The position numbers were made by a program, and so were the translations under genes. 32,000 nt of DNA from Candidatus Electrothrix sp. GW3-4 (lineage in GTDB: Bacteria > Desulfobacterota > Desulfobulbia > Desulfobulbales > Desulfobulbaceae). The notes beneath the pieces were generated by a model. It had not been told where the DNA came from. It searched no databases and saw only the letters and a program-made list of their open reading frames with translations. The stretch is taken from assembly GCF_037902255.1 (NCBI RefSeq), contig NZ_CP147990.1, forward strand, positions 3,630,001 to 3,662,000. Reading direction: 5' to 3'. This document shows positions 8,425 to 32,000 of the stretch, in pieces; position 1 is the stretch's first letter, and the number at the start of each line of letters is the position of its first letter.

Positions 8425-8436
8425 ACAAAGAGAGGC

Positions 8437-9570: not shown

Positions 9571-10395
9571 TCAACAGACTCCCGAAGGACTCCTTGCCTT
9601 TTCCTGGAGCATCACCGGAGCTTGCAGGGCCTCCGCCATCGGGATAACCCTGTGTTTCTCTGCCAACCACTTGAAGAGACGTTCGAATTCCCTGTACAGC
9701 AGCTCGCGGTCTTCCTCCTGAAAGGCCGGAAGATCATGGAGCATGATAATATCGCCGGGATGCAGTTTATTGATAATTTTTTCGCTCAACCCAGCAATAT
9801 TGCGGTTGCCCCGATCAAGGGCGCGACAGCTGTAATTTACTGCACAAAGGTTCTCCTGCTCCAAGACCTTTTGGAGACGCGGACCGGTGATCCCCACCGG
9901 AGGCCGGAAGAGCAAGGGACGGACACCGTAGCCTGCCAAGACCTCCTGGGTTGTGTGGAGATCCTCCTGAATCTTCCGGGCAGTGCGCAGCATGAGAAAA
10001 TAATCATGCTCCCAGCTATGGTTGCCGATGCTATGGCCAGCAGCCAAAATCTGCTGGATCAACTCTGGATGCGCGGCCGCCTTTTTCCCGATCACAAAAA
10101 AGGTCGCAGGCAGACGGTAATGGGCAAGGAGCTCCAGCAGAATGGGCATAACTGCGGGGGACGGTCCATCATCAAAGGTCAGGACAATCCCCTCTGTTCC
10201 CGCTTGGGCCCTGCTGATGATAGGGAGAAAAAAACTGGTCCCAGGAAAAAACGGGGCGACGAAACAGAGAAACAGGAAAACAAATGAAGGGAGGGGGACC
10301 AGAGCAGGAGCGAGAATAAGGCAGAGCAGAGCCGCCAGCAGAGCGATGATGCCGATCTTTTCGCCTTTACAAAGTTTGTCGGAGATTCTCAACAT
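9571..10395 (-). CDS. Polysaccharide deacetylase family protein (NodB homology domain), membrane-anchored, 274 aa
   Basis: NodB motifs VLTFDDGP, ATFFVIG and GHSIGNHSWEH are present. The N-terminus contains hydrophobic helices. Confidence 0.9.
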   Translation of the reverse strand: MLRISDKLCKGEKIGIIALLAALLCLILAPALVPLPSFVFLFLCFVAPFFPGTSFFLPIISRAQAGTEGIVLTFDDGPSPAVMPILLELLAHYRLPATFFVIGKKAAAHPELIQQILAAGHSIGNHSWEHDYFLMLRTARKIQEDLHTTQEVLAGYGVRPLLFRPPVGITGPRLQKVLEQENLCAVNYSCRALDRGNRNIAGLSEKIINKLHPGDIIMLHDLPAFQEEDRELLYREFERLFKWLAEKHRVIPMAEALQAPVMLQEKARSPSGVC

Positions 10396-10841
10396 CGCCT
10401 GTTACTGGAGGGAAGCAACTCTCATTGGATATACTCGATGAAGCAGAGCCATCATTCTGGCTAAATCAACTTTTAACCATCTTGCATGAAAAGTAAACAG
10501 AAAATCACTGCTGATAGGATGGAGTGTACCCAGCCCGCTATCACAGGCGAAAATCAAACCGCGCAGTGATGTGGGTTACAGGGCGGGGTCGCGAGTTCGA
10601 ATCTCAGATTCAGGGCAATAACAAACCGGGTCACGCACTACGCACGCACTCAGTCAAACACAGCAGACATATCACGGTCGATCCTGCATAACCCGCTTCA
10701 ATACTTCTCCCCCCCTTTTCCTCGTCTATTTTCCCCCATTGTGTCAACCGTGCCAACTATTGTAATATATTTGAACTGCTGGAAGTTTAAGGATTGAGAA
10801 AGGAAAAAGACACAAGGAATAATTCAACATGTTTTTTTATT

Positions 10842-11081
10842 ATGAAACGGTTTGCTCTTTATTACAAGAAAGAACGTTTATCTCATTGCAAACTTCATGG
10901 CGCAATTGAGGCTGAAAATAGTACAAACGCATTTATAAAGGCTGTTAATACCATTCGAGCAGGCGGTCTTGATCCAGATGAATTTAGGGAATTTTATATC
11001 GTCCCTGTCACCCCTGACAACTCAGTGCAATACAAAATGCAATGTTACGGATGGGACGAGAGCGGAGATTTTCCGAGATAA
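10842..11081 (+). CDS. Hypothetical small protein (79 aa from the ATG at 10842; start uncertain)
   Basis: It is the only sizeable ORF in an AT-rich gap of about 1 kb. There is no convincing RBS and no family is recognised. Confidence 0.3.
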   Translation: MKRFALYYKKERLSHCKLHGAIEAENSTNAFIKAVNTIRAGGLDPDEFREFYIVPVTPDNSVQYKMQCYGWDESGDFPR

Positions 11082-11256
11082 CAACTGATAATGAAATATC
11101 GTCGTGGACTAACGCCAGGCTGTCGGGCTTTATTTCTGTAAATGGTGTAAACAAAGCCTCTTAAAACATACTGATACAAATATAATCAGCTAGATAAGGT
11201 AGACTCACCAACCTCTCACGCCGGTAGCCCGAACTACAAGGTCAAACCCCAGCCCC

Positions 11257-11294
11257 AAACAAAAAAAACCGGGCCACGTGCGGAACGTGCCCGG
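11257..11294 (-). terminator. Rho-independent terminator downstream of the SulP gene
   Basis: CCGGGCCACG-tgcggaa-CGTGCCCGG hairpin at 11269-11294 (9 bp with one bulged C). It is followed on the minus strand by a U-run of eight (plus-strand A-run at 11261-11268). Confidence 0.6.
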
Positions 11295-11474
11295 TGAGTT
11301 GAGGCAGAACGGCCTCCCAGAAGAGATACTAAGCTCCTACCGTTCCAAGGTCCTCAAACAGCACAACATGCTGTGGTGTTTGCAACCGGAGTAGTGCGAG
11401 CCCAGCGCCAGATCACATGGACATTACCCCATCAACCTGGAAGCCGAAAAAATAATCGGAGCATCTTCCTGGCG

Positions 11475-13052
11475 CTACACAGGCGAGTAATCCTCAAACC
11501 CATCCACAGCAACGGTGTACTCAGGGTCTTCGATGATGTCGACCTGAATGAGTTTATCTGCCTTATGGATAAGTTTCCGACAATCAGGGCTGAGATGGAG
11601 CAGACTGATCTTCTTGCCTGCCTGCTCATATTTTTGGGCCAATTTATTGATGGCCTCAATACCAGAATGGTCAGCGACCCTGGATTCCCTAAAGTCGATA
11701 ATAACTTCATCAGGATCGCTTTCCACCTCAAACTTACTGTTGAACATCTGCACGGAGCCAAAGAAGAGCGGCCCGAATATCTCATAATGCTTGACCCCGT
11801 TTTCATCAATGCGCTTTCTCGCCCTGATGCGGATGGCATTTTCCCAGGCAAAGACCAGGGCGGAAACAACAACCCCGGCAAGCACTGCAATGGCCAGATC
11901 AAACAGCACGGTTAAGACCGTGACCAGGAGGATGACCAGGGCATCGGAGAGAGGGATTTTATCAAGGACACCAAAGGTACTCCAGGCAAAGGTGCCAATC
12001 ACAACCATGAACATCAAGCCAACCAGGGCCGCCACCGGAATCATCTCGATATAGGTAGCGCCAAAGAGGATGAACAGGAGCAGCGACAAGGCCGCCACAA
12101 TGCCAGAGAGCCGTCCGCGTCCGCCTGACTTGATATTAATGATACTCTGGCCGATCATTGCACAACCGCCCATGCCGCCCATAAAGCCGTTCACAATATT
12201 GGCAGCGCCCTGAGCAATACTTTCCTTATTGGCATTGCCGTGGGTATTGGTCAATTCATCAATAAGATTCAAGGTCATCAGGGACTCAATCAGGCCCACA
12301 GAGGCAATGATTGCAGCATAGGGAAAGATAAACGCGAGGGTTTCCCAGCTCAAGGGAATAACCGGGACATGAAAGACGGGTAATCCGGCCTGGATACCGG
12401 CTCCCCCTTTGGCCTGGACAAAGGACAGGACAGTTTCTGTCTCAATCCCGGTGAAGATGACCAGCAAGGCAACCGTGATAATCGCGACTAGGGCAGCTGG
12501 CACCTTGGTCGTGAACTTGGGCAGGACATAAAGGATGGTCATGGTCAGGGCAACGAGTCCAAGCATGGTATAGAGAGGTGTGCCCTGCATCCATGCGCCA
12601 TCGGTCTTGAACATCTCCAGCTGGGCCAGAAAGATAACGATGGCCAGGCCATTGACAAAGCCCATCATCACCGGATGGGGGATGAGACGAACAAACTTAC
12701 CAAAGCGGAAGACCCCGGCCAGGACCTGCAACAAGCCAACCAGCAGGAGGGTGGCGAAGAGGTATTGCAGACCAGCACCCTCGCCCCCCATCTCTGTCCC
12801 TGTTTTGACCAGGGAGACCATAACAATGGCTGTGGCACCGGTGGCACCGGAGATCATCCCGGGACGACCACCAATCACTGAGGTCACCAAGCCCATCATA
12901 AAGGCCCCGTACAGACCAACGATCGGCGATACACCGGCAATAAAGGCAAAGGCAACGGCTTCCGGGACTAAAGCTATGGCCACCGTCAGCCCGGAAAGGA
13001 CGTCGTCTTTAACTGTACCTCTTTTATGCTCTATGAACTTAAATCTCTTCAT
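11475..13052 (-). CDS. SulP-family inorganic anion transporter with a C-terminal STAS domain, 525 aa
   Basis: The N-terminus DVLSGLTVAIALVPEAVAFAFIAGVSP and the multi-TM core are typical of SulP. The C-terminus YEIFGPLFFGSV...IIDFRESRVADHSGIEAINKL is STAS-like. Confidence 0.95.
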   Translation of the reverse strand: MKRFKFIEHKRGTVKDDVLSGLTVAIALVPEAVAFAFIAGVSPIVGLYGAFMMGLVTSVIGGRPGMISGATGATAIVMVSLVKTGTEMGGEGAGLQYLFATLLLVGLLQVLAGVFRFGKFVRLIPHPVMMGFVNGLAIVIFLAQLEMFKTDGAWMQGTPLYTMLGLVALTMTILYVLPKFTTKVPAALVAIITVALLVIFTGIETETVLSFVQAKGGAGIQAGLPVFHVPVIPLSWETLAFIFPYAAIIASVGLIESLMTLNLIDELTNTHGNANKESIAQGAANIVNGFMGGMGGCAMIGQSIINIKSGGRGRLSGIVAALSLLLFILFGATYIEMIPVAALVGLMFMVVIGTFAWSTFGVLDKIPLSDALVILLVTVLTVLFDLAIAVLAGVVVSALVFAWENAIRIRARKRIDENGVKHYEIFGPLFFGSVQMFNSKFEVESDPDEVIIDFRESRVADHSGIEAINKLAQKYEQAGKKISLLHLSPDCRKLIHKADKLIQVDIIEDPEYTVAVDGFEDYSPV

Positions 13053-13396
13053 CTTTTTCTACATCCATCTCCTTCATGCGTCATATAAGCATAGACCGGC
13101 ATAAACAAGCTGAACCACTCCTGTGTTTTGAGTTTTTAAAAATACAAAAATTACTCCATCGACGTAAGGGGTTGTTTATAGCATTTATTCGGCCTCAAGG
13201 GAATGATTCTTTTTGGTGATAGGGGGAGATTTCCGGTAAGAGAAGAGCAATGAAAGAACGGAGACGCGGGAGTAGAGAGAGGAAGGCAACTGGCTGTTGA
13301 CAATACGGTTTTATTACTGGTACTGTGCCCAGAAAAGATCTACCTGTTTAGATTTATTTTTCCAGATTACCCAACCTATTCAATGTAGGAGTATTG

Positions 13397-14656
13397 ATGA
13401 AAAATTTATTTCCAGGGTACTTTAGAGAATCCCAAGAAAATCTGAGAGAAATTTGGGATTCTTGCATTTTCGTATTTGATGCAAATATCTTACTGAATTT
13501 ATATCGATACTCAGATACTACAAGAAACGAATTTTTAGGCTTACTAGAAAAGATAAAGGATAGAGTCTGGCTGCCTCATCGGGCTGCCGAAGAGTACCTG
13601 AACAACCGGTTATCAGTAATAGACCAGCAAGAACGATCATATGATTCAACGATCAAATCTATCGAAAGTCTAAAAAGTGATTTAGACAACGCTAGGCAAC
13701 ACCCTTTTGTCAGCAAGCAGACTATGAAAAAATTTGATTCTGTAGTTCACGCCTTATGCGAGGAGCTAACCCATAACAAAGAAGTGCATACTCAAAGAAT
13801 ATCAAATGACGAAATAAAAAATTCAATCTCTCAAATTTTTGAAAATAGAGTTGGCTTGCCTTTTGAAAAAGAGAAATTAGAAAAGCTAATTATTGAAGGC
13901 GAAGAGCGCTATAAACAAAAAATTCCGCCAGGATTTAAGGACGGATCGAAATCCACAGACAGCGAAGTGTTCAGCGAACGGTGCCGAAGATTTGGAGATT
14001 TAATTGTTTGGAAGCAAGTTCTAGAACATTCTATCGAAGTTGCCAAAGGCGTTGTACTTGTTACAGATGACAAAAAAGAAGACTGGTGGGAAAAATTCAA
14101 AGGTAAAACTATTGGGCCCCGCCCTGAATTGGTGAAAGAATTTAAAGAACACGCGAATAATACTTTCCATATGTATCAAGCTGACCGGTTCCTTGAGCTA
14201 GCGCGGGAAAACCTCGACGAACAAGTTAGTCAACAGATCGTTGAAGAAGTTCGTGAAGTAATGCGCCGAGACAAAATGGCTTTTCGTAAAAAACAAAAAC
14301 TTGAGAATGTTAGCCGCCAAAAAAACAAGATTAACAGAATGATGAAAGAGTTAGAACATGCTCGTTATCAACTATTAGAGCATCAACACGAAATGGTTTC
14401 ACTACAAGAGAAGGATCATATGCTGGAAACAGAAAGAATGGAGTTGCGAAAACTCAGAGAAAGTTTCCCAGATGATGAATGTGAAATTGAAATGGAGCCG
14501 TTCATACGGCATTACTCTGATTATCATTTAGTCAAAAGGCGATTAAAAGAATCAAAAGATAGGTATCAAGAGTTACAACATCGAGCCATACAGCTGGAAC
14601 ATGAACTGGCCCGACAAATGAAATACATCAAACGAGAAAATGCAGCTGCCTCGTAA
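13397..14656 (+). CDS. PIN-like domain protein (PIN_8/DUF4935-like) with a long C-terminal coiled coil, 419 aa
   Basis: ATG at 13397 with TAGGAG 5 nt upstream. N-terminal IFVFDANILLNLYRYS and later VLVTDDKKEDWW match PIN-like nuclease acidic motifs. The C-terminal ~140 aa are highly charged and heptad-like. The gene is markedly AT-rich. A possible promoter is TTGACA at 13297-13302, then 18 nt, then TACTGT. Confidence 0.75.
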   Translation: MKNLFPGYFRESQENLREIWDSCIFVFDANILLNLYRYSDTTRNEFLGLLEKIKDRVWLPHRAAEEYLNNRLSVIDQQERSYDSTIKSIESLKSDLDNARQHPFVSKQTMKKFDSVVHALCEELTHNKEVHTQRISNDEIKNSISQIFENRVGLPFEKEKLEKLIIEGEERYKQKIPPGFKDGSKSTDSEVFSERCRRFGDLIVWKQVLEHSIEVAKGVVLVTDDKKEDWWEKFKGKTIGPRPELVKEFKEHANNTFHMYQADRFLELARENLDEQVSQQIVEEVREVMRRDKMAFRKKQKLENVSRQKNKINRMMKELEHARYQLLEHQHEMVSLQEKDHMLETERMELRKLRESFPDDECEIEMEPFIRHYSDYHLVKRRLKESKDRYQELQHRAIQLEHELARQMKYIKRENAAAS

Positions 14657-14694
14657 CATTGCTGCTGACTCTGATATCCTTCACCACGCGCCTC

Positions 14695-14915
14695 ATCTCA
14701 ATCATACGTGTGGCTTTATCTCACAAGCACTTGTGAGATAATCTCGATAATGCGTATGAGATAAAGTCAATAACGTTTGTGAGATTCAAAACTGCCTACT
14801 TAGGAAGAAAAGAGATAAGCACTTGCGAGCCTCCCTCCTAACTACTTATCTCCCTCTCTCATACGTACATTCCACTGCGCCACCGCTCCCCGATAACGCG
14901 ACGAGCTTATCTCAG
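14695..14915. repeat. Cluster of at least 7 copies (both orientations) of a TTATCTCA(C/T)A / T(G/A)TGAGATAA motif, including a perfect 12+12 palindrome
   Basis: Perfect palindrome TTATCTCACAAG-ca-CTTGTGAGATAA at 14716-14741. Further copies: TATGAGATAAAG (14755-14766), TTTGTGAGATTC (14776-14787), GAGATAAGCACTTGCGAG (14812-14829), TTATCTCCCT (14846-14855) and TTATCTCAGA (14907-14916). TCATACGT recurs at about 14702 and about 14860. Confidence 0.7.
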
Positions 14916-15093
14916 AAATACCCCCCCCTTCACCTTTCCCTCCTCTTCCTCCTGATTCCCTGCCAGCCGAAGCCGCAGAGACGCAGGTTCCCGTGGCTTG
15001 CGTGCAGTTGTTTTCGCCATTCCAGCAGAGCCGGAAGCCTTCTTCCAACTGGGGAATACCATACTTGGGGCGCAGGACCCGGCTGAATGCCAT
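14912..15093 (-). pseudogene. Decayed copy 1 of the 3' end of the protoporphyrinogen-oxidase-family gene (frameshifted, ~60-bp internal deletion)
   Basis: It aligns by eye with 19165-19403. ORF 14842..15093 begins MAFSRVLRPKYGIPQLEEG, and 17 of these residues are identical to ...FSRVLRPKYGIPQLEEG of the intact gene. A second frame reads LPALLEWRKQLHASHGNLRLCGFGWQGI, against YPVLLDWRRQLHASNDNLHLCGFGWQGIG in the intact gene. Confidence 0.8.
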
Positions 15094-15154
15094 TTCTTTG
15101 AGATCTGAACAGCCCTGATCAGATTACGCCCCAGAGTTTTGAAGAAGCCTGCTC

Positions 15155-15532
15155 CTATCGTAATGTAACAAATGTCTCAAGAGGAATCCTTTCCCTTTTA
15201 CTTGCACCGATCACCTCAACCCCCTGCGTCCCGATTATCCCTTTCAGGCTGATCGCTGTCGTCCATACCGGTTCTGGATGAGGACCGGGAATAGCCTCTT
15301 TCAATCTGCCGCCGCATCCTCCTACAACTTCAATCTCCCAATATTCGGGCTGGTCATCATATTGATGGGGAACCAATTTCACGTCAACAACACCGCTGAC
15401 AAGAACTTTCCCGGTAACTATCAGTACATGAACATCATCCCAAAGAGTAACAATACCGGTATGTTCAAAATCAACGAGTCGGCAGCCTGTGGAGAGGGGT
15501 AATTCATAAAATGCCTTGATACTGTCTTTCAT
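15155..15532 (-). CDS. Hypothetical protein, 125 aa (cargo between the two gene-fragment copies)
   Basis: ORF 15155..15604 trimmed to the ATG at 15530-15532, which is preceded by AAGGAG. No family recognised (MKDSIKAFYELPLSTGCRLVDFEHTG...YWEIEVVGG...). Confidence 0.55.
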   Translation of the reverse strand: MKDSIKAFYELPLSTGCRLVDFEHTGIVTLWDDVHVLIVTGKVLVSGVVDVKLVPHQYDDQPEYWEIEVVGGCGGRLKEAIPGPHPEPVWTTAISLKGIIGTQGVEVIGASKRERIPLETFVTLR

Positions 15533-15631
15533 AGCTCTGCTCCTTGTGAAATTTTGCAGAAAAAAAAAACAACAACCATCCCTTTCCTTAAAGCAGAAAT
15601 CCACGGAGATATCAAGAATTATACTGTCCAG

Positions 15632-15730
15632 CCCCCCTTCACCTCTTCCTCCTTCTCCTCCTGATAGCCAGCCAAAGCCGCAGAGATGCAGATTCTCATT
15701 GCTTGCATGCAGTTGTCGTCGCCACTCCAG
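15632..15730 (-). pseudogene. Decayed copy 2 of the 3' end of the protoporphyrinogen-oxidase-family gene (~100 bp, same internal deletion)
   Basis: cccccttcacctcttcctccttctcctcctgatagccagccaaagccgcagagatgcagattctcattgcttgcatgcagttgtcgtcgccactccag aligns with 19176-19338 and with copy 1. The plus-strand ORFs 14823..15086 and 15516..15776 share QPKPQR(R/C)RF...LACSC.RHS. Confidence 0.75.
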
Positions 15731-15784
15731 GCAAAGAACGTCTATGAATGAGCAGGTAAGCGGCGCATTAAGCTGAAGCCAGGT

Positions 15785-16810
15785 CTACCTAATCTCTTTC
15801 CTCGCTTCAGCTGGAGTTTTCCCGGACCAGCGCTTAAAGGCCTTCCGAAACCCCCGGTCACTTGCAAAACCCAGCCGAAAGGCTATCTCATCAATACTGA
15901 GACTTTTATCGGCCAGCATGCCCATCGCATTGACATATCTGACCTCATCCAGCAGGCTCCCCGGCGTAACATCATCTGGCAGACGTCGACGTAACGTACT
16001 GATGCTCATACCCATGCTCCGAGCCAGACCGGCCACCGAGTAATCCCCCTTGATCGTATTACACATGGCAGCCCGACGGATATCTGCAATCCCGTCTGCC
16101 AAGTCCAGACCGAGTTCCTGACGCAGACGCTGCAGACGCTGCTCCAGTGAGCATCGCACTTCCTGACTCCCTCGACGATTCGAGCGTTTTTTCAGCTCCT
16201 GGGTACTGAGTACCAGGGCATTAAACGCAGCTCGAAAGCTGACCGGGACACCAAAAAAATCCCTATAGATGGCAACATCTCCCCGTGCCTTATGACGAAA
16301 CTGGACGCGGGTCAATAAGCCCTTGCCAAAGCACTCCTCTATGATTCGGGCCCCGATGCCAAGTCCGATTTCCGCCCCCATCCCCTGATCGACCTCGCTC
16401 AGCGGCTGGCTGGTACGAAAAAAGGTCTCTTTTGAAGCGGAAATCGCTTTGATTTCAAGGCGGTCAGCAAGCAAATCGCAATGATCGACAAAGAGATCCA
16501 GCATGGTCTGCGCATCAGGGGCACGAAGCAGGAGTCTCCCTGGAGTGCCGAAATAAGAGACCGGAGCAATCCCTGCCAGCTCCAGCGCTATATTTCGTTC
16601 TGGAAAATTTCTGATCAGCATTTGGAAGAAATCTTCAAAAAAGTCTTCAGGTAGATAATTTTCAGGATCCATCAGTCGACCGGGCTCGATGCCGGTTTCC
16701 TTGCTGATGTATTCTACGGACAAGCCAAGATACGCCGCAAAAAACACAGCAACGGTCCCCATGCTGCTCAGCATACGACATTCCCTAGGCGTTATACAGA
16801 ATGGCTGCAT
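15785..16810 (-). CDS. AraC-family transcriptional regulator (N-terminal ligand-binding-like domain plus C-terminal HTH_18), ~341 aa
   Basis: ORF 15785..16900 trimmed to the ATG at 16808-16810, which is preceded by GAGGAG. The C-terminus SVAGLARSMGMSISTLRRRL...IDEIAFRLGFASDRGFRKAFKRWSGKTPAEARK is a classic AraC dual HTH. Confidence 0.9.
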   Translation of the reverse strand: MQPFCITPRECRMLSSMGTVAVFFAAYLGLSVEYISKETGIEPGRLMDPENYLPEDFFEDFFQMLIRNFPERNIALELAGIAPVSYFGTPGRLLLRAPDAQTMLDLFVDHCDLLADRLEIKAISASKETFFRTSQPLSEVDQGMGAEIGLGIGARIIEECFGKGLLTRVQFRHKARGDVAIYRDFFGVPVSFRAAFNALVLSTQELKKRSNRRGSQEVRCSLEQRLQRLRQELGLDLADGIADIRRAAMCNTIKGDYSVAGLARSMGMSISTLRRRLPDDVTPGSLLDEVRYVNAMGMLADKSLSIDEIAFRLGFASDRGFRKAFKRWSGKTPAEARKEIR

Positions 16811-17401: not shown

Positions 17402-19024
17402 ATGCCCGAAATTACTCGTCCCAGCGGCTTAACTATTTCCCTGCCCGCTACTTACAGAATTGGCACGCTCAGGTCTGAACCGGAAAGCCCGCCGCGTAAT
17501 GCCGAACCCCGGCGGGGTGGACGTCGAGCAGAACCTCGGTCCAGTAAGGAACGGAGGTTCGAAGGAGCGGAAGCGTTTCCCGAGGGAACAGCTATGCTCA
17601 ACGCCCTGAAAGAGCAGGATATGCAGGTGGTGGACAGCTTTACCCTGGAACCACTCCGTTATCGAGCTGAGGCTGCTGACGTGCGGGAAAAACAGAATAT
17701 CAGGCTCCAGCAAGATCTTCAAAAAAACGAAGGTGCTGTGGTTCTTATTGCGCAGAAAGGCGTTTATTCCTGGGTATTTCCAAAAGAAGAGACAAAGACC
17801 CTGCAATCCGATTCCCGCCAGAATGTACGGGGGCAGACTGCCGCCCGATCCGCCAATTTTCACTTTGATGTGCAGTCGCTCAGCAAGGCCGGAAAAAAGG
17901 CGACGCAACGTGGAAAAACAACGGACTTCATATCCTCTACGATCATTGTCATGAAGTTTGTCGCTCACCTTCCTGTCGATTCAGCAATAAAGTTTTTGGA
18001 ACGCAATGTCGAGCCCGGCCTAGTGCTCATCACCTCTCAAGACGCCGGGCAGTGGCTTCGGGTTGAAGATATGCGTTCGATCACCTTACCTACGGATCGC
18101 CGGGCTAAAATACTGCTCCTTGTTCACGGTACCTTTTCAAGCACCACGGGCAGCTTCGGTGCCCTCAGTTATACAGAGCCGGGACAGAAGTTTCTGACCA
18201 AGGTCTTGGAAAAATATGACATTGTGATCGGATTTGATCATCGCACACTCAGCGATGATCCGAAGGCCAATGCTCTGGATCTGCTCAAAAGACTTCAGCA
18301 GGGAACCTGGCCGCATCCCCCTAAGGTGGATGCCATTGCATTCAGTCGTGGTGGCTTAGTGTTACGTTGGCTGGTACAGCGTCTGTTACCTGTTGCTGAC
18401 TGGCCAGCCCGAATTGAACGGGCAGTCTTTGTCGCCTGCACGAACGGCGGCACTATCTTGGCTGAGCCGGAAAATTGGCATGCACTGGTTGATCTGTATA
18501 CAAATCTTGCTGTCGGCTTAAGCCGCCTGCTCGGGATGATACCTCAGGCCGCTGTGCCGCTGAATATTTTTTCCGGCATCCTGCAGGGACTCGGAGCGTT
18601 GGTAAAGTTTATCGCAACCGAGGCGGTGAGCGGCGGTGCGGTGCCAGGACTGGCTGCCATGGAGCCAGATGGCGAGTTTGTAATCCAACTCAACAGCAAC
18701 GCGTCAGCAGCGCCGAAAGAAACTCAGCTCTATGCTATAACCTCACAATTTGAGCCCAAGCTGTCCGGTGAGACGTATGAGCCAGAGGAACTGGCACCCG
18801 AGTTTACCCTACGCCTGGCAGATAGACTTGTCGATCGGCTCATGAATAACGCCCCCAACGACGTCGTGGTTGATACCGCATCCATGACCACATTTGATCC
18901 AGATACGCAGCAGCTCGTACAGGATAAATACGAGTTCGGTGTAACCTCGAAAATCTACCATCTAAATTATTTTACCCGTTCTGAAGTAACCGAGATCCTT
19001 ACCCATTGGCTGCAACTCGAATAA
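17402..19024 (+). CDS. Alpha/beta-hydrolase-fold (esterase/lipase-like) protein with an Arg/Pro/Glu-rich N-terminal extension, 540 aa
   Basis: ATG with AGGAGG upstream. ILLLVHGTFSS...IGFDHRTLS...AIAFSRGGLVLRWL resembles the oxyanion-hole and nucleophile-elbow (xSxG) arrangement of serine hydrolases. The specific family is not identified. Confidence 0.65.
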   Translation: MPEITRPSGLTISLPATYRIGTLRSEPESPPRNAEPRRGGRRAEPRSSKERRFEGAEAFPEGTAMLNALKEQDMQVVDSFTLEPLRYRAEAADVREKQNIRLQQDLQKNEGAVVLIAQKGVYSWVFPKEETKTLQSDSRQNVRGQTAARSANFHFDVQSLSKAGKKATQRGKTTDFISSTIIVMKFVAHLPVDSAIKFLERNVEPGLVLITSQDAGQWLRVEDMRSITLPTDRRAKILLLVHGTFSSTTGSFGALSYTEPGQKFLTKVLEKYDIVIGFDHRTLSDDPKANALDLLKRLQQGTWPHPPKVDAIAFSRGGLVLRWLVQRLLPVADWPARIERAVFVACTNGGTILAEPENWHALVDLYTNLAVGLSRLLGMIPQAAVPLNIFSGILQGLGALVKFIATEAVSGGAVPGLAAMEPDGEFVIQLNSNASAAPKETQLYAITSQFEPKLSGETYEPEELAPEFTLRLADRLVDRLMNNAPNDVVVDTASMTTFDPDTQQLVQDKYEFGVTSKIYHLNYFTRSEVTEILTHWLQLE

Positions 19025-25699: not shown

Positions 25700-26743
25700 T
25701 CATGGTGTCGGCCTATGCGTCAATGCTGGCATAAAGATGAGCCAGTTGAAGTCACTAAGAACCCCCGCCCCTCCAAGGACCACATCCTTTCCAGAATTAT
25801 CAGCTCCTGCTGTTACAGTTACTTCAGTAGCGCCAGCAAAGCTCGTCGCATCCTGATACCACTCATTAAACGAAGCTCCGTAAGACTCAAAAACCTGCAG
25901 CTTATGGGGACCAGCTGGCAGACCCTTTATTTGATATTCACCGTTGCCATTTGTTTCAGCATATCCTCTCCAAACCTGATTGCTGTCATAGGCGTCAATC
26001 CAAGCACCCACAACCGGGTCACCTGTCCCATGATAAGTGACCGTCCCAGAGATACTGCCACCGAGGGCGAGAGCGGCATTCACCACATGAGTATCATCTA
26101 ATGCTGAGATTGTTATGAGATCGGCGGTTTCCTCCTCCTTATCATTATACCACTCGGAGACATAGTCAGTAGCCACCGCAGAAAAACGAAGCGTATAGCT
26201 CCCCACTCCCAAACCGGCAAGAATATAATCACCATTTTCATCGGTAAGATCCGAGCGTATCAAATCATACGTCTCGTTAAACAAATGTACGTATACCCCA
26301 GCTATAAAAGTAGCGGAGTCTCCCTCAACAGTTATCGTTCCAGATATTTGAGCATTGCTTGTGACCAAGGATGTGATACCAAGATCGACAGTACCTGTTT
26401 CAGAAACTGGCACCAGATTCGCGTCGTCCTTAATTGCTTGATTATTATACCATTGACTAACATAATTGGTTCCATAGGTGGAGTAGTGCACCTTATAGTC
26501 TCCTGCGGCCAAATCAGTCAGAATATAATAGCCGTCTACGTCAGTCTTATCACCGAACAGCCAGTTTCCACTGTCATCATACACGTCCACCCATAAATTT
26601 GGAATAGCAGCACTATCGGACGCTTGCTTCACATATCCTTCTATAGCTCCGGCCTGCGTTTCGGCAACAGCTAAAAAAAGAACCAAAAAAATTAACAGCA
26701 GCGTTAAAGGTAAAAACCTACAAGAAAATGATCCTTCTTTCAT
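25700..26743 (-). CDS. Secreted protein with three tandem carboxypeptidase-regulatory-like (CarboxypepD_reg/Cna-B-like) repeats, 347 aa
   Basis: It has a signal peptide (…LVLFLAVAETQAGA). Three modules of about 95 aa each contain (I/S)(E/S)G(Y/T)V...D.NG.Y.I..L..G.Y.(V/L)...(V/F)S(Q/E)WY(N/Q)(N/D). RBS GGGGGAG; TATAAT at 26767-26772 on the minus strand. Confidence 0.8.
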   Translation of the reverse strand: MKEGSFSCRFLPLTLLLIFLVLFLAVAETQAGAIEGYVKQASDSAAIPNLWVDVYDDSGNWLFGDKTDVDGYYILTDLAAGDYKVHYSTYGTNYVSQWYNNQAIKDDANLVPVSETGTVDLGITSLVTSNAQISGTITVEGDSATFIAGVYVHLFNETYDLIRSDLTDENGDYILAGLGVGSYTLRFSAVATDYVSEWYNDKEEETADLITISALDDTHVVNAALALGGSISGTVTYHGTGDPVVGAWIDAYDSNQVWRGYAETNGNGEYQIKGLPAGPHKLQVFESYGASFNEWYQDATSFAGATEVTVTAGADNSGKDVVLGGAGVLSDFNWLIFMPALTHRPTP

Positions 26744-27094
26744 CGTAACTCCCCCATTTTGCCCATATTATATTCGACTATTACAAGATAACCATCCTCT
26801 CCTATAATCAATGGTAGCGACGAGCAAAGAAATAATCAAGCTTAAAAACGGTATATCAACTAGTGTTCAAACAACGTTAAGTTGACGAGTCTCTTCTCTT
26901 TTGTTTCCCGAGTTCGAGCACACAATATGAGAATAAAGAGCGCTCCCCCCGGCCTGCGCCCGGGACCAAACTTCCAAATAACAACAATATAAATGTGTTG
27001 TTACTTAGAAGGAAGATTATGTCCCCGTCAGTTTAACGCTCCAGCAGTACTAGTTATCATTAACAATCCGTACAATTTTAGTCCAAAGAAGGCG

Positions 27095-27589
27095 TTAGCG
27101 TGGAAATTGCTCTATTATAGAAGAGGTCGCTTTACGCAGGTAGTACGAGAGCAGAGCACAGGCAACAATGCGGAAGGATTGGAGACGCATGAACGGACTA
27201 CGCAGGTCAATTTTTTTTCTACGGGTGATAATATTCTGCACACGTCCAACAAGATGATCAACAGGTATAAAACAATCAAAAGAGCGACATGCATCTCCTT
27301 TGGTTTGCAGATACAAAACATTACTGTAACAACGACGTCGAAGCAGCCGGTGGATAAGAGGGGACTTTTGCGGGGTGCAGAAAAGAACAATATCACCCAG
27401 GCGAGGATTCTTTCCTTTAAGGGAAGAGATTTCAACTAAATCTCCGCTTTGTATCAAAGGCATCATAGATTCACCAGACACCTTAATACGCACGTTAATG
27501 CCCTCACGGAGCAGAGTACGCACAAAATCTAGCGCTCCTTGGTCGCGAATGCTGATTGTCGGCAAATCGTTCATGAACACCGAACTCAT
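27095..27589 (-). CDS. S26/S24-family serine peptidase, SipW/archaeal-type signal-peptidase-I-like, 164 aa
   Basis: VSGESMMPLIQSGDLV carries the Ser nucleophile motif. GDIVLF, IHRLL and LQTKGDA (Lys general base, TKGD) follow, then VDHLVGRV. ATGA overlap with the upstream kinase-like gene at 27586-27589. There is a C-terminal hydrophobic segment. Confidence 0.7.
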   Translation of the reverse strand: MSSVFMNDLPTISIRDQGALDFVRTLLREGINVRIKVSGESMMPLIQSGDLVEISSLKGKNPRLGDIVLFCTPQKSPLIHRLLRRRCYSNVLYLQTKGDACRSFDCFIPVDHLVGRVQNIITRRKKIDLRSPFMRLQSFRIVACALLSYYLRKATSSIIEQFPR

Positions 27590-28497
27590 TGCAACGATAG
27601 AGCCAGCTTTTCTATAGCTTCTCTGGCGCTTTGATCAGGCCGAAACGCAAGCTCAAACACAGGAATATCTTTCAACAACCTCTCACACAGCACAAGCCCT
27701 TTGCTGGTCCATTCTTCGCTATACCAAGGAATAGAAACCGTCTGAAGAAGACGATGCAGTCCTATTGACGGAGGAAGCTCCACAATCCTAGTTTGTTGAG
27801 CTTGTCGAAGAAAAATAAGTGCAGAAAGAGGTGCGGATTCATTTCGAGCGATTCTCCCTTCACCGTGCCAAGGTGTTCCCCATACCTGCCAGGTATCGTT
27901 AACAGAACGAATGATCAAACGCTCTTCGCTGAAGAGGCAATTTTGTGAATTAGAAAACAGCAATCGGCTGAGGGTAGACTTTCCTCCTCCAGACGGCGCA
28001 GGAAAAACGAGTCCCTTTCCATAAACAGATCCTCCGGCTGCATGGCTGATCAGCCCTTGCTGATTTATAAAGCTGTGCTGAAGTAAAAACAGGCTAAGTG
28101 CTAGCTTAGAAGGAAGAAGCGGCTTCTGCGTTTTGGCAATATTATCTAAGAAGAGAGCGTAATCAAACCGCTCAAACTGAGGATCAATTTCAAGTGCCCA
28201 CAAAAAAACCTCCTCAGAAGGAGTGAGGTGAAGAACCTGGAGATACCCTTTTTCCGTTTTGTAAAAACTTGATCGCTGCTGAGTAAGTATTTTTTCAAGT
28301 TGGTTAACAGCCGGTTTCCTTTCGCAGCAAGAAGCAATGTGTACCTGAAGATCTTCCGGCTGCTGCTCCGGTTTTTTTTCAAGGCGGGCAAAAGAAATAA
28401 AATCTTTTGCCCAAGTCACATCAGAGTCATTCTGAACAAGACAATATTCGGAACTGCATCGAATGGCTATGCCACCAAGAGAGCATTGAAAATTCAT
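27586..28497 (-). CDS. HPr-kinase-like (HprK C-terminal-domain-like) P-loop kinase, 303 aa
   Basis: HAAGGSVYGKGLVFPAPSGGGKSTLSRLL is a P-loop in the context typical of HprK-related kinases. The start codon lies 6 nt after the stop codon of the small peptide ORF. Confidence 0.7.
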   Translation of the reverse strand: MNFQCSLGGIAIRCSSEYCLVQNDSDVTWAKDFISFARLEKKPEQQPEDLQVHIASCCERKPAVNQLEKILTQQRSSFYKTEKGYLQVLHLTPSEEVFLWALEIDPQFERFDYALFLDNIAKTQKPLLPSKLALSLFLLQHSFINQQGLISHAAGGSVYGKGLVFPAPSGGGKSTLSRLLFSNSQNCLFSEERLIIRSVNDTWQVWGTPWHGEGRIARNESAPLSALIFLRQAQQTRIVELPPSIGLHRLLQTVSIPWYSEEWTSKGLVLCERLLKDIPVFELAFRPDQSAREAIEKLALSLQ

Positions 28498-28503
28498 TAG
28501 CCC

Positions 28504-28683
28504 TCAAGATGACCTTGGGTTCTGCAAACAGGTTCCGTTTGGGAACACCTCAAAGCATCCGCCAAGGACTTGGTCTGCAAACAGTGCAACTGTCTTGAGC
28601 TGAGGTTTCTCATATCGTTTTTTCAACGCGATATTCTTCTCTTTCTTTTTCAAACCCGTTATATTATTTTTATGTTCTTCCAT
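28504..28683 (-). CDS. Unannotated 59-aa candidate RiPP precursor peptide: MEEHKNNITGLKKKEKNIALKKRYEKPQLKTVALFADQVLGGCFEVFPNGTCLQNPRSS
   Basis: Hand-translated from the minus strand: ATG at 28681-28683, TGA at 28504-28506. It fills the otherwise empty gap between the rSAM gene (14 nt upstream) and the kinase gene (6 nt downstream). It has a Lys-rich leader with YEKPQL (YxxPxL), a Gly-Gly junction, a 2-Cys core and a C-terminal Ser-Ser. The SD is weak (GACGAG). Confidence 0.6.
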   Translation of the reverse strand: MEEHKNNITGLKKKEKNIALKKRYEKPQLKTVALFADQVLGGCFEVFPNGTCLQNPRSS

Positions 28684-28697
28684 CTTTACTCGTCATG

Positions 28698-29858
28698 TTA
28701 AGTGGTCTGATTATCAGACGACAGTGCTTTTTTCTTTCGTAATGAGCTGCTCTTACAGTAAAAAGAAACTACATTATTCAGCACTCCCGTCTCTAATACA
28801 AAGTTACTCGGACACCCTGCACAAAAACTTCGACTCTGACAACTTGAACAGGCAAAAGAGGGTGGCGCCTTCTGCTCGGGAAACTCATTACTCATTACAC
28901 TCCAAACATCGGAGATTGTCCGACCGGCAAGGAGGTCATATGAAAAATGAGGTGATATGATACATGGTTGCATCTTACCATACGGAGTAACATGATATGA
29001 TGACCGGCCAGCTCCGCAGTAATATAATTTATCCCTAAAAGACCCCACATCAGAACGCGCCGTTATCAATTTTTGCAACTCATTCCTAACCTTATCGATA
29101 GCAAAATCTGCTTCAACGGCCTCCTCATAGGGAAGACGAAAACGCAATATATCCTGAGGTCGATCCCTGCCCGTGCCATCATTCATATTCGTACAGCCAG
29201 CATGGTTATCTTCGTTGGGTAAAACAGGTATAATTGAGGAGTCATGACGAAAAGGCACTCCTAACTTTTCAGCCATTTCCCACATAGCTGAAAGCTCCTG
29301 ATGATTCAAGGTCATCACTATCGCCTTAAGGCGTAACCTGATCTTTTCACCAACAAGTCGTTTTATTCCATTAAGACATAAGGTGAACGAACCAACTTTC
29401 TGAGTTATGGACTCAAAAGTTTTTGCATTGGCACCATAAAGAGTTACGTCCACCGCTCGTGGAGGATACCGAGTGAATAAGCGTACAATACTATCTGAAA
29501 GCGACGTACCGTTGCAATATACCGAGACGAGCAGTCCTGATCGTACTGCATATTCATACACAGTAAGAAAATCATCCCGAAGCATTGGATCTCCACCAGT
29601 CAATGTCAAAAAGAGTGTCCCTGCCTCCACCATCTCATCAAGTAACCTAATGATAGCCTCTGTATTAAGTTCCTTATGACGGTACTGCCAAATCCCCTTC
29701 TGATCTCCAAGATAACAATGCACACAACGAAAATTACAGCGATGTGTCAACTCAAAGGATGCTGATATCGGTATACGAGCTCCTGCTGCACGAGCAAGAT
29801 AGCGATCAATCTCATCGGATTCCACTCCTGCACAATCTTTTTCCGTCCCTTTTACCAT
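28698..29858 (-). CDS. Radical SAM protein with a SPASM-type C-terminal auxiliary-cluster domain (peptide maturase-like), ~386 aa
   Basis: CNFRCVHC (CxxxCxxC) and GGDPML are present. The C-terminus YYCGAGRSSYHVTPYGKMQPC...FACSSCQSRSFCAGCP is SPASM-like. The ATG at 29856-29858 overlaps the PqqD stop codon (TGATG). Confidence 0.9.
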   Translation of the reverse strand: MVKGTEKDCAGVESDEIDRYLARAAGARIPISASFELTHRCNFRCVHCYLGDQKGIWQYRHKELNTEAIIRLLDEMVEAGTLFLTLTGGDPMLRDDFLTVYEYAVRSGLLVSVYCNGTSLSDSIVRLFTRYPPRAVDVTLYGANAKTFESITQKVGSFTLCLNGIKRLVGEKIRLRLKAIVMTLNHQELSAMWEMAEKLGVPFRHDSSIIPVLPNEDNHAGCTNMNDGTGRDRPQDILRFRLPYEEAVEADFAIDKVRNELQKLITARSDVGSFRDKLYYCGAGRSSYHVTPYGKMQPCIISPHFSYDLLAGRTISDVWSVMSNEFPEQKAPPSFACSSCQSRSFCAGCPSNFVLETGVLNNVVSFYCKSSSLRKKKALSSDNQTT

Positions 29859-30148
29859 CAAATTGCCACAGACAATCCTGATTCGACCAAATCTGTTATA
29901 ACTTCAAGCAAGTCTGCCTCAATTTCCTCCCTAGGTGCGTCATACTCCTGTTCGAGCAAGCTCCCTATTTCGGCAAGAGTTCGAGTGCCATCAATGGAAG
30001 ACCAAATAAGTGCCCCTGTATCATTCAGCGTATACAGTTCATCCATAGAGGCAAGCTCTCCTGAAATAGGTACCAGCAAAGTCTCATCCATCACTTTACG
30101 TGTAACTATATTATCAGCCTTTCTGTATATACTATCTAACCTCACCAC
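29858..30148 (-). CDS. PqqD-family protein (RiPP recognition element-like peptide chaperone), 96 aa
   Basis: The size and the sequence VTRKVMDETLLVPISGELASMDELYTLNDTGALIWSSIDGTRTLAEIGSLLEQEYDAPREEIEADLLEVITDLVESGL fit PqqD. GTG start; the exact start is uncertain. Confidence 0.85.
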   Translation of the reverse strand: MVRLDSIYRKADNIVTRKVMDETLLVPISGELASMDELYTLNDTGALIWSSIDGTRTLAEIGSLLEQEYDAPREEIEADLLEVITDLVESGLSVAI

Positions 30149-30170
30149 ATCATTCTCATCAATAACAATC

Positions 30171-30204
30171 AGATAAAGAAAGGCGAAGATATCTCATCTC
30201 CGCC
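30171..30204 (-). terminator. Intercistronic hairpin plus U-rich tract between the C25 peptidase and PqqD genes (terminator or attenuator)
   Basis: The minus-strand RNA GGCG-G-AGAU-gagau-AUCU-U-CGCC (30182-30204) is followed by UUUCUUUAUCU. Only about 20 nt remain before the PqqD start, so read-through is probably needed for downstream expression. Confidence 0.4.
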
Positions 30205-30222
30205 GGTTGATCGACGTCAGTT

Positions 30223-32000
30223 TTAGCGCTGAATCACAGTAGCAGGATCACCAAGAAGGTTGTAAACATCCAATAAATAGCGATCATCCCTCTGATCGCC
30301 ACATTGATCAGCATAATACTGTTTTCCCGACACGATGGCATCGCCGAGACTGGGATTTATTGGGTCCAAAAAGCTTCGATAAAACCCTTCAGACATTGTG
30401 TACGATGCATGATTCCTCACCATACCTGTGGCCCCGTAAAAAGCGCTTGCGGCACCACCAGCCTTTAGTAGCGCTGTTTCGCCTATACTATTTATCGTAG
30501 GGTAACCAAAGCTTGCAGATCCACAGGAGGCACTGAACATGAGCATAGGGTTGCCTATCTCCTGCATATCCTCAATTTCACTCGCAGTCAAGAGATACTT
30601 ACCATGACGTCCATACGCCGTCATAGTACTATGCCCTATATAATGCATAATACCTGAGCCTTGCTGCATCGCTTCAACAATCTGCCCACGGACACTACTT
30701 AACGGCTGTGTCTCTGCGGAAAGACGATTGACCGTAAAATATGGGGACATCAAAGCGGCAACTTTATCCGCAGCAGCCTCAAAGTCTCCGACACTTGGAT
30801 CTGCCCTATCCGTGATCAGCGTCAATTCAGTACTCTTATTATGGCGATTCTCTTCATAGAAGATCAATTTACTGATAAAAGAGTCAAGCTCTCGGCTGTT
30901 ATACGCCGGAATCCTCCCAAGAGCAAACTCTGGAATTTTATCATCACCAATAACATCTGCAAAGAAATTATCACTTGGAAGAAAACCAACCGGAGTCTGT
31001 ACAAGGACACTGGGGACCTGAGGATATCCATAGTCTAGATAGTTTTGATAGTCGTAAGAACCTACCCCTATCAAGGTAATATATCGAGGCACTCTTGACC
31101 ATTTTTCAGAGACATAAGCAAGGAAGTCATGCACGGCCTCAGGTGCAAGCAAACCATAGCTGAATTCATCCTGAATGTCCTCAATATCAACGAGCATTGT
31201 TGTCATTCCCTGAGAAGCTCTATATTCGGCAAGACGTTTCGCTGAATCCATCAAGCCCAAGGAGGTGATAATGACATAGTCAGCCTGATTATCCTCATTG
31301 CGTAAATATGATATCGTATCAACAACGTGGATTTCACCAGAAATAGTTGAGTCGATATTCTCCGTGATATAATAATTAGATCCCGGCTCTGTCAAGATTG
31401 TAACGTTATATTCGCCAACCTGATTTTTGCCAATAAGAGGGCGTAATCGACGAGGAGTGAATGGATCTGTCACATCAAGAGCCAATACCGTGCCACGAGT
31501 AAAACCTTCTACAGTAACTTGATTATATCCGCCGTCATTGAAGAACAACTCTCCGTCAACGGCTTGGTATGCACGGTTATAATCCAGCCCTATAGACTCA
31601 AGATAAACAACCGAATATTGGACATTCCTATTCAGACGTGAGATCAGAGTTACTTTATTATCATCCTCATTAAGCTGGTCAGCAGAAACCTCAGCGCTAA
31701 ATTGATAATCTCCCTTTTCCGACCATTCCGCCGTGCCTATTTTATTCTCATTGAGGAGGATATCCACCTTGAATGAATCAGCACTACCGTAATTCTCATA
31801 TTCGACACCAACCAAATCCACTGTCAGTATAGCTGTTCCGCTCCCTGTCATATATGGCGCATCAATAGAGTATGGCCCAGAAGTGGTATCCTTACCATAG
31901 GCAAGGATGCGAGCCCACGCCCAAAGGTCTTTAACCGGCGTGTCAATATAAATATGGAAAGGGGCACCATTTTCTTCAACCCGATTCTGCGCGAAAAATG
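30223..32000 (-). CDS. Peptidase C25 (gingipain-family) cysteine peptidase, N-terminus outside the window (partial)
   Basis: MHYIGHSTMTAYG (catalytic His context) and MLMFSASCGSASFGY (catalytic Cys context) are present. The frame stays open upstream of the first Met (31851) to the window edge: ...FFAQNRVEENGAPFHIYIDTPVKDLWAWARILAYGKDTTSGPYSIDAPYMTGSG. Confidence 0.8.
   Translation of the reverse strand, partial: FFAQNRVEENGAPFHIYIDTPVKDLWAWARILAYGKDTTSGPYSIDAPYMTGSGTAILTVDLVGVEYENYGSADSFKVDILLNENKIGTAEWSEKGDYQFSAEVSADQLNEDDNKVTLISRLNRNVQYSVVYLESIGLDYNRAYQAVDGELFFNDGGYNQVTVEGFTRGTVLALDVTDPFTPRRLRPLIGKNQVGEYNVTILTEPGSNYYITENIDSTISGEIHVVDTISYLRNEDNQADYVIITSLGLMDSAKRLAEYRASQGMTTMLVDIEDIQDEFSYGLLAPEAVHDFLAYVSEKWSRVPRYITLIGVGSYDYQNYLDYGYPQVPSVLVQTPVGFLPSDNFFADVIGDDKIPEFALGRIPAYNSRELDSFISKLIFYEENRHNKSTELTLITDRADPSVGDFEAAADKVAALMSPYFTVNRLSAETQPLSSVRGQIVEAMQQGSGIMHYIGHSTMTAYGRHGKYLLTASEIEDMQEIGNPMLMFSASCGSASFGYPTINSIGETALLKAGGAASAFYGATGMVRNHASYTMSEGFYRSFLDPINPSLGDAIVSGKQYYADQCGDQRDDRYLLDVYNLLGDPATVIQR

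Follow-up and report, generated by a model that had tools for sequence, protein, structure and literature searches.

Among the closest described counterparts of the system reported here are the kinases of lasso peptide biosynthesis. PadeK, ThcoK, SyanK and PsmK phosphorylate the C-terminal Ser of linear lasso precursors (PMC9266682; PMC8498205). These enzymes need a His-Lys-Asp-Asp tetrad (PMC9266682), and the precursors linked to them share little sequence beyond the C-terminal Ser (PMC9266682; PMC8498205). In pseudomycoidin, the phosphoserine is further decorated with a hexose by a member of the NTP_transf_5 family (PMC9266682). Here we describe a gene cassette in a 32,000-nucleotide stretch of the cable bacterium Candidatus Electrothrix sp. 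GW3-4 (contig NZ_CP147990.1, positions 3,630,001 to 3,662,000; hereafter the window), in which an HprK-like protein of the Pfam ScmC family is encoded directly after a short peptide ending in Ser-Ser and close to genes for a PqqD-family protein and a radical S-adenosylmethionine (radical-SAM) enzyme of the SPASM type. We favour, with modest confidence, the view that this is a biosynthetic cassette for a ribosomally made, modified peptide and that the HprK-like protein phosphorylates the terminal Ser59 of the precursor.

The combination of a radical-SAM/SPASM enzyme, a PqqD protein and an HprK-like protein is not in itself new, as it is already catalogued in NCBIfam as the SynChlorMet cassette (ScmC, the PqqD-like ScmD and the radical-SAM/SPASM proteins ScmE and ScmF; TIGR04248-04251, PF27840). 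To our knowledge, the NCBIfam model description identifies no precursor for that cassette. Two other HprK-related families have partners of their own: HprK-related kinase A sits with a PqqD-family protein and a nucleotidyltransferase, and kinase B with the ATP-grasp "GAK" system. A further point of comparison is provided by the radical-SAM/SPASM pathways that use a PqqD-type RiPP recognition element (RRE), that is, those for sactipeptides, ranthipeptides, pyrroloquinoline quinone (PQQ) and mycofactocin; we know of none with an HprK-like kinase or a required C-terminal Ser. The leader of PqqA, WKKPAF..L.L..EV, resembles that of the window peptide.

Read 5' to 3' on the minus strand, the order of genes in the window is C25 peptidase, PqqD protein, radical-SAM/SPASM enzyme, peptide, HprK-like kinase, S24/S26-type peptidase and CarboxypepD_reg repeat protein. 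A preliminary description of this DNA had placed the kinase-like gene 6 nucleotides after a peptide with a YxxPxL leader and a Ser-Ser end, and both coordinates and translations agree with this; the genes are all on the minus strand, a point that it did not give. The TGA stop of the peptide (28506..28504) is followed by 6 nucleotides (gggcta) and then by the kinase ATG at 28497, while the gene for the S26-like peptidase overlaps the kinase stop by 4 nucleotides. The central features are as follows.

28683..28504, minus strand: precursor peptide gene, 59 amino acids (open reading frame; leader about residues 1-42, putative core C43-S59).
28614..28597, minus strand: leader motif YEKPQL, residues 24-29, the presumed PqqD/RRE binding site (from the translation).
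28507..28512, minus strand: codons of Ser58-Ser59, Ser59 being the proposed phosphate acceptor (from the translation).
28497..27586, minus strand: HprK-like (Pfam ScmC family) putative peptide kinase, 303 amino acids (open reading frame; catalytic candidates H152, K173 and E191-E192).
27973..27999, minus strand: P-loop (Walker A) of the kinase, APSGGGKST, residues 167-175 (from the translation).
29861..28698, minus strand: radical-SAM/SPASM maturase, 387 amino acids (Pfam Radical_SAM, 5.7e-18; Cys motifs in the translation).
30148..29858, minus strand: PqqD-family peptide chaperone (RRE), 96 amino acids (Pfam PqqD, 9.4e-18; its end abuts or overlaps the radical-SAM start).
27589..27095, minus strand: soluble S26 (SipW/Sec11-type) signal-peptidase-like protease, 164 amino acids, the presumed leader peptidase (NCBIfam, Pfam).

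The window precursor, MEEHKNNITGLKKKEKNIALKKRYEKPQLKTVALFADQVLGGCFEVFPNGTCLQNPRSS, has 59 residues and the C-terminus RSS. Its leader follows the pattern Y24-x-x-P27-x-L29...L34...VL-G-G and runs into the 17-residue stretch C43-S59 through a leader-core junction of the cable-bacterium type, LFADQVLGGC; the core holds two Cys and ends in Ser-Ser. When this gene is compared with a 69%-identical homologue on a metagenome contig (L001), the codons of residues 24-59 show 13 synonymous and 4 non-synonymous differences and those of residues 1-23 show 2 synonymous and 14 non-synonymous differences. Judged from these codons, residues 24-59 of the peptide are under purifying selection. A profile built from 11 peptides that were found by their position upstream of a kinase gene, and in whose alignment Y24, P27, L34 and C43 are invariant, matched 199 proteins at E <= 0.01. 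Because of the synonymous bias in residues 24-59 and the existence of 199 homologous peptides, the peptide reading frame can be taken as real and not as a chance open reading frame.

Our family statistics cover the 120 matches that were listed out of the 199. None of these homologues has a Pfam domain, and the source names, where there are any, read "hypothetical protein"; a typical precursor is matched by neither NCBIfam nor Pfam models. The leader motif, YxxPx[L/V], is present in all 120. The last residue is Ser in 113 and Thr in 7, with a Gly-Ser ending in 103. Three Cys follow the leader in 116 of the 120, as against two in the cable-bacterium type seen in the window, and a typical member can be written M..K..YEKPRLRTIELAAEEVLAIGCK-x(9-14)-C-x5-C-x3-GS. 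The residues between the Cys are hypervariable, and the positions of internal Ser and Thr in the core are not conserved. As the profile itself held the terminal Ser, a second set was examined that had been chosen without regard to the C-terminus. In this set, of peptides located between radical-SAM and kinase genes by the leader motif alone, the ending is Ser or Thr at each distinct locus, with a single exception (L005). Other arrangements of kinase and radical-SAM genes (L018, L047, L052, L062 and L063) likewise have leader-bearing peptides that end in Ser, and five peptides traced by exact sequence all lie on contigs that carry the full cassette, kinase included (5/5). On these alignments, neither the YxxPxL leader motif nor the C-terminal Ser is accidental; both are conserved. 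In the cassette of Ca. Electronema aureum (L093) there are two precursor genes, at 8543-8701 and 9892-10056, one of them between the PqqD and radical-SAM genes.

The kinase belongs to the HprK superfamily but falls below the cut-off of every NCBIfam model, and the broad Pfam ScmC family alone covers it. Its best NCBIfam match is HprK-related kinase B (2e-5, 23.9 bits, cut-off 200), over the His motif and the P-loop stretch; ScmC (TIGR04249) scores 4.3e-5 and 23 bits (cut-off 125) and HprK-related kinase A 6e-4 and 19 bits (cut-off 200). In precomputed annotation, PF27840 (ScmC) is assigned to the window protein and to 105 of 106 close homologues; a Pfam scan with a copy of the library that lacked PF27840 gave no match. 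Nor was there any match to TIGR00679 (HPr kinase/phosphorylase) or to Pfam Hpr_kinase_C, whose marks on some relatives are only weak or faint, and a phmmer search against the sequences of the PDB gave nothing meaningful. At E <= 1e-3, an exhaustive HMMER search gave 7394 cluster representatives, of which 85 had E <= 1e-30. The 101 closest relatives all lie under every NCBIfam cut-off, and the family therefore forms its own branch of the HprK superfamily. The nearest homologues (42-57% identity) belong, with few exceptions, to the cable bacteria Ca. Electrothrix and Ca. Electronema; their source names are "hypothetical protein", with UniRef occasionally giving "SynChlorMet cassette..." or "Hpr(Ser) kinase". 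One Desulfobulbaceae locus (L004) has two kinase paralogues, at 6203-7162 and 7971-8888, and parts of the cassette are duplicated in cable-bacterium relatives.

Across the 101 relatives H152, G172, K173, G207, P209 and W210 are invariant, and R193 and T208 are kept in 100 of them. The conserved stretches are H152 in HAAG, S169-G-x-G172-K173-[ST]-T, S190-[DE][DE]-R193, G207-T-P-W-x-G, N219 and S255-I-P-W-Y. Positions 191-192 are always acidic: the close clade has EE in 57 members, DE in 21, ED in 9 and DD in 3, and DD is present in 111 of 150 representatives. An AlphaFold2 model of the protein has a mean pLDDT (predicted local distance difference test) of 94.2 and a pTM (predicted template modelling score) of 0.91. 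With this model, Foldseek gave ATP-dependent phosphoenolpyruvate carboxykinase (PEPCK) as the best match (E about 1e-6), followed by the HPr kinase/phosphatase entries 1knx, 2qmh and 1ko7 (3e-4 to 8e-4), and the family profile matches the HprK entry 1jb1 over the stretch of His, P-loop and acidic pair (E = 0.0015). From the predicted structure, the fold may confidently be assigned to the PEPCK/HPr-kinase P-loop type.

The partner proteins were also compared with known families. The radical-SAM protein has the motif CNFRCVHC and a C-terminal SPASM motif, CxxCx5CxxC. Its NCBIfam matches are full length for ScmE, GeoRSP_rSAM and PapB and N-terminal for AhbD and MftC, all of them far below the cut-offs; against ScmE and ScmF it scores 67 and 72 bits, respectively, where the cut-off is 400 for each. 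The PqqD protein scores best against PQQ-type PqqD (1.1e-9), with the lasso B1 models at about 5e-6 and ScmD at 7.6e-6 (26 bits, cut-off 100). Hence, the leader motif is better called PqqD-type than lasso-type: the preliminary description was right to point to a YxxPxL leader, and the motif is conserved, but the label it gave to that leader needs changing. The features expected of an RRE-dependent radical-SAM/SPASM system are present together in the window, namely CxxxCxxC, the SPASM Cys motif, a PqqD-type RRE and a conserved leader joined to a variable core. The S26-like protein matches NCBIfam sigpep_I_arch (1.1e-12) and Pfam S24/S26 and is without an N-terminal membrane anchor. Residues G39, S41, M42, P44, H80, R81, G98 and D99 are invariant in 32 homologues, and its Ser/His boxes, as aligned, are of the SipW/Sec11-type arrangement. 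A 147-amino-acid protein of Firmicutes clusters, considered as a lasso B2 protease, was rejected as such, being homologous to the S26-like peptidase of the window (31% identity, E = 5e-13) and having the Ser/His boxes.

Two further genes, both for secreted repeat proteins, lie to either side of those listed above; they and a hairpin are given below.

30223..32000, minus strand: C25 (gingipain/PorU-like) peptidase domain, at the C-terminus of a giant repeat protein that is secreted (gene incomplete within the window).
30182-30204, minus strand: terminator-like hairpin of 10 bp with a T-rich tail (consensus match only).
26743..25700, minus strand: secreted CarboxypepD_reg/SdrD_B repeat protein, 347 amino acids, a possible accessory part (Pfam).

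The C25 reading frame is open to the window edge (30223-31998), and an ATG inside the window, at 31851, would give a protein of only 542 amino acids. The full gene is present on a second contig (L002, 2267-8461), where it encodes 2064 amino acids with CLIPPER/DUF7933 repeats and a Sec-type signal peptide. Its C25 domain matches Pfam Peptidase_C25 at 8.6e-68, and the best NCBIfam match is the type IX secretion system (T9SS) sortase PorU at 1.8e-53. In relatives, the C25 proteins range from 1169 to 4457 amino acids and carry CLIPPER and SdrD_B repeats; those encoded before the cassette in Electrothrix sp. YB6 and Electronema aureum have 4457 and 4014 amino acids, respectively. As the hairpin lies between the C25 stop and the PqqD start, the C25 gene may be transcribed separately, or read-through may be regulated. 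The 347-amino-acid protein has an N-terminal hydrophobic, signal-like segment; its family is encoded downstream in L001, L004, L005 and L006, and CarboxypepD_reg proteins are encoded downstream in the cable-bacterium loci L092 and L093. The preliminary description was correct on the radical-SAM/SPASM enzyme as part of the cluster; it had left out the S26-type peptidase and the giant C25 peptidase, both of them conserved partners.

The same description had presented the locus as a mosaic pathway. It is not a one-off. A genome scan seeded with a 15-sequence kinase alignment gave 80 loci, and a census by tblastn with five window proteins found the PqqD, radical-SAM and kinase genes, in that order, in 27 non-redundant loci besides the window, a fixed cassette in several phyla. 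The C25 gene is adjacent in 21 of the 24 loci with enough upstream DNA, and tblastn finds the S26-like peptidase in 13 of 26 related cassettes. One related cassette (L091), among the five traced from their peptides, additionally carries an NTP_transf_5 gene. Hosts include Desulfobulbaceae, Ca. Electronema, Desulfobacterales, Actinomycetota, Aminicenantes, Acidobacteriota, Anaerolineaceae, Bdellovibrio, Ca. Fredericiella and unclassified metagenome-assembled genomes, and two of the listed precursor homologues bear the source names Nitrospirota and Thermodesulfovibrionales. The cassette is conserved, sometimes in several copies, throughout the cable bacteria and is also widespread outside them. 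A further candidate family from the high-GC loci (f7) was discarded; it is an antisense open reading frame lying over the PqqD and radical-SAM genes, without a Pfam match, and tblastn finds PqqD and radical-SAM there.

How does this cassette compare with the known systems? With the lasso kinase systems it shares an HprK-like P-loop enzyme encoded beside the precursor, a His-Lys-acidic-acidic tetrad with the same His-to-Lys spacing (21 residues, equal to that of the kinase in the lasso cluster L034), a YxxPxL-type leader, a conserved C-terminal Ser, a PqqD-like protein and, in L091, the NTP_transf_5 partner. It differs in having no cyclase or B2 protease, in using a radical-SAM/SPASM enzyme on the core and probably an S26-type leader peptidase, in having Glu-Glu for Asp-Asp in the kinase, and in a leader without Thr at -2. 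The idea that the kinase is of the lasso type did not hold, since, judged by comparison with the one lasso kinase of L034, it lies outside the lasso-kinase clade, and it falls in the Pfam ScmC family. The system is lasso-kinase-like in its leader type and C-terminal Ser and outside that family by cluster content and sequence clade.

The SynChlorMet cassette shares the HprK-like/PqqD/radical-SAM combination and the Pfam ScmC family of the kinase, and one cable-bacterium homologue is named "SynChlorMet cassette..." by UniRef. However, the window has one radical-SAM gene and not two, another gene order and, in addition, the giant C25 protein and the S26-like peptidase, and its proteins score below all Scm cut-offs. 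HprK-related kinases A and B (TIGR04352 and TIGR04355) belong to the same HprK superfamily, but the window kinase and its 101 relatives lie below their cut-offs too. HPr kinase/phosphorylase has the same P-loop kinase fold and the same arrangement of His, GxGKS and acidic pair, whereas the window kinase lacks a TIGR00679 match, has another N-terminal domain and has no HPr or carbon-catabolite context. Finally, the PqqD/RRE radical-SAM/SPASM pathways share the PqqD-type element (discrete or fused), the SPASM maturase and the short precursor, which here has a Cys-bearing core, but no model of those families is reached at cut-off by the window proteins.

Gene content and order, the conservation of the cassette, the fold and catalytic residues of the kinase, the conserved leader motif and the invariant terminal Ser or Thr are observations; we infer every chemical step of the pathway that follows, as well as the order of the steps and the cleavage site. 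The stand-alone PqqD protein would bind the leader and present the peptide to its partner enzymes. The radical-SAM/SPASM enzyme would then modify the core, with thioether cross-links from the two Cys as the most likely outcome. The HprK-like P-loop enzyme, with ATP, would phosphorylate the side-chain hydroxyl of Ser59 on the still-linear precursor; the Ser or Thr at the end of the listed homologues and the analogy with related kinases, which act on the last residue of lasso peptides, suggest this choice of acceptor. The leader would be cut off near the conserved G|C junction by the soluble S26-type Ser/His peptidase, whose translation is coupled to that of the kinase. The giant secreted C25 peptidase encoded just upstream is a conserved partner of the cassette. 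A broader proposal, made tentatively and with less assurance than that of a Ser59 kinase, is that these cassettes may define an undescribed and widespread class of peptides with a PqqD-type leader, a SPASM-cross-linked, hypervariable core of two or three Cys, an obligatory C-terminal Ser or Thr phosphorylated by a ScmC-family protein, and a tie to C25 proteins.

Several observations weigh against phosphorylation of Ser59 by this pathway. The window kinase has Glu191-Glu192 where the lasso kinases tested have Asp-Asp, with the carboxylates retained. Its similarity to a genuine lasso kinase (one such kinase, that of L034, was compared) is confined to 58 residues in the P-loop region (BLASTP, E = 0.007), as compared with E from 1e-10 to 1e-99 for cassette and Firmicutes relatives. 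The nearest relatives outside the cassette lie in Firmicutes clusters of kinase, PqqD, S26-like peptidase, ABC transporter and NTP_transf_5 genes, and the YxxPxL peptides of these clusters are without a terminal Ser (L068, ...HYVGG; L070, ...HYIGG; L065, ...DDEW). The wider kinase family is, therefore, not tied to a C-terminal Ser. Within the cassette family itself, the peptide of Ca. Electronema halotolerans (L005, 7794-7970) ends in ...SGQSG; it is the sole cassette peptide found with an ending other than Ser or Thr and may reflect genuine variation, an error of sequencing or a need for C-terminal trimming. The thioether assignment is drawn by analogy with other SPASM enzymes, and the radical-SAM protein reaches no characterised maturase model in NCBIfam at cut-off. 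The cassette itself has neither an exporter nor an immunity gene. Moreover, it could be the radical-SAM enzyme or the C25 peptidase, and not the kinase, that calls for the invariant Ser.

This last point belongs to the alternative that the HprK-like protein works on the peptide elsewhere than at its C-terminal Ser, which we regard as unlikely. It could phosphorylate an internal Ser or Thr (for instance, so that the phosphate leaves in an elimination followed by addition of Cys), activate a carboxylate or provide an ATP-dependent scaffold for the complex of PqqD and radical-SAM proteins. The endings of the Firmicutes peptides agree with such a role, as does the finding that, among the kinase-linked loci examined that lack a lasso cyclase, a C-terminal Ser occurs only where a radical-SAM gene is present. 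In addition, the best whole-protein fold match is PEPCK and not a protein kinase, and ScmC-family proteins have no demonstrated function. However, the only HprK homologues associated with ribosomally made, modified peptides that have been studied biochemically phosphorylate the C-terminal Ser (PMC9266682; PMC8498205), and the lasso precursors with such kinases likewise have little in common apart from that residue. Elimination would call for a lyase or similar partner, and none is encoded in the cassette, while the lack of conserved internal Ser or Thr in the core also speaks against an internal acceptor.

The Firmicutes loci (L068, 6165-11484; L070, L050, L071, L065 and others) have neither a radical-SAM gene nor a lasso cyclase. 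Where the upstream peptide is identifiable (L034, L043, L065, L068 and L070), it never ends in Ser, and most of these peptides carry a YxxPxL-type motif. These kinase/PqqD/S26/ABC transporter/NTP_transf_5 loci look like a separate, uncharacterised peptide system.

A second alternative is that the peptide and its enzymes serve the giant C25 protein and yield no free natural product. The modified peptide might be a cognate inhibitor of the protease, a pro-peptide acting in trans or a tag attached at the surface by the PorU-like transpeptidase domain. The adjacency of the C25 gene in evaluable cassettes across phyla and the PorU match of its domain are in keeping with this, and the giant protein has a signal peptide while the cassette lacks a dedicated exporter. 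We nevertheless consider it quite improbable: three cassettes (L018, L020 and L021) are without C25, its position or strand differs in two others (L091 and L051), the terminator-like hairpin separates it from the PqqD gene in the window, and no carrier is known that would bring a cytoplasmic peptide to an extracellular enzyme. A role for the peptide in the service of the C25 protein would be compatible with phosphorylation of Ser59 by the kinase.

With regard to lasso biosynthesis, the preliminary description had noted neither a lasso cyclase nor a B2 protease in the window, with a radical-SAM enzyme in their place, and had named the DNA just beyond the window as where such genes might lie. 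A radical-SAM/SPASM gene is indeed present upstream of the peptide, and no Asn-synthetase-like cyclase or B2 protease was found among the larger open reading frames of the window, in the 6.68 kb beyond it or in related cassettes; the SGGxDS PP-loop motif is in no window reading frame. The DNA beyond comes from L002, which matches window positions 26984-32000 at 100% and extends 6.68 kb past the window end; apart from the remainder of the C25 gene, that extension encodes just a divergent response regulator and an AAA_16 ATPase. L034, which is a genuine lasso cluster with no relation to the cassette, is the one locus among the 83 (L001-L083) where SGGxDS falls within a plausible cyclase. That the window holds an ordinary lasso cluster, with cyclase and B2 protease outside it and the radical-SAM enzyme as an accessory, is hardly credible: the YxxPxL leader, C-terminal Ser and HprK-like gene do recall kinase-bearing lasso clusters, but the extension past the window holds no lasso genes, the remaining larger reading frames of the window are functionally unrelated, a plausible cyclase is confined to that single locus, and the leader lacks the Thr at -2.

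Locus L034 (Paenibacillus rigui, 7567-16571) has a kinase/PqqD/ABC transporter/NTP_transf_5 module beside a complete lasso cluster, which is made up of a cyclase with SGGLDS, a precursor ending in ...NPRFTS, a lasso-type kinase, B1, B2 and a nucleotidyltransferase-like gene. A role of the window peptide as a cofactor, for example, a metal-binding cofactor of cable bacteria, was also considered and judged unlikely because the core between the Cys is hypervariable and the cassette is widespread outside cable bacteria.

The novelty lies in the precursor family, in the hydroxyl residue that invariably ends it and in the association with C25 proteins and cable bacteria; in the literature, we came across no link, outside lasso peptides, between HPr-kinase homologues and peptide pathways that use radical-SAM enzymes. 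If the broader proposal above is true, ScmC-family proteins would be peptide C-terminal Ser kinases outside lasso biosynthesis, and a class of peptides would be functionally tied to giant secreted C25 (PorU-like) proteases. ScmC-family proteins are numerous (the 7394 representatives) and annotated as hypothetical or sometimes as "HPr kinase", and the link to a precursor family with an invariant terminal Ser or Thr gives them, in C-terminal phosphorylation of peptides other than lasso peptides, a first directly testable function. The precursor family of these related cassettes also supplies the kind of piece that is missing from SynChlorMet. The compact cassette of five to six genes is suited to heterologous expression, and the apparent coupling of giant C25 proteases at the cell surface with a modified peptide deserves notice. 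As a conserved feature of cable bacteria, the cassette also bears on organisms whose cell envelopes are being actively studied.

Elsewhere in the window lie genes unrelated to this finding: a BtrH_N/DUF4872 protein (7399-8424, minus strand), a PIN_8 protein (13394-14656, plus strand) and a DUF7362/DUF7379 protein (17402-19024, plus strand). Its other products include a resistance-nodulation-division (RND) efflux pump, a phosphonate-binding protein, a deacetylase, a SulP transporter, an AraC regulator and an amine oxidase, and two more reading frames, judged from their translations and not from a domain scan, resemble a hybrid sensor kinase and HtpG.

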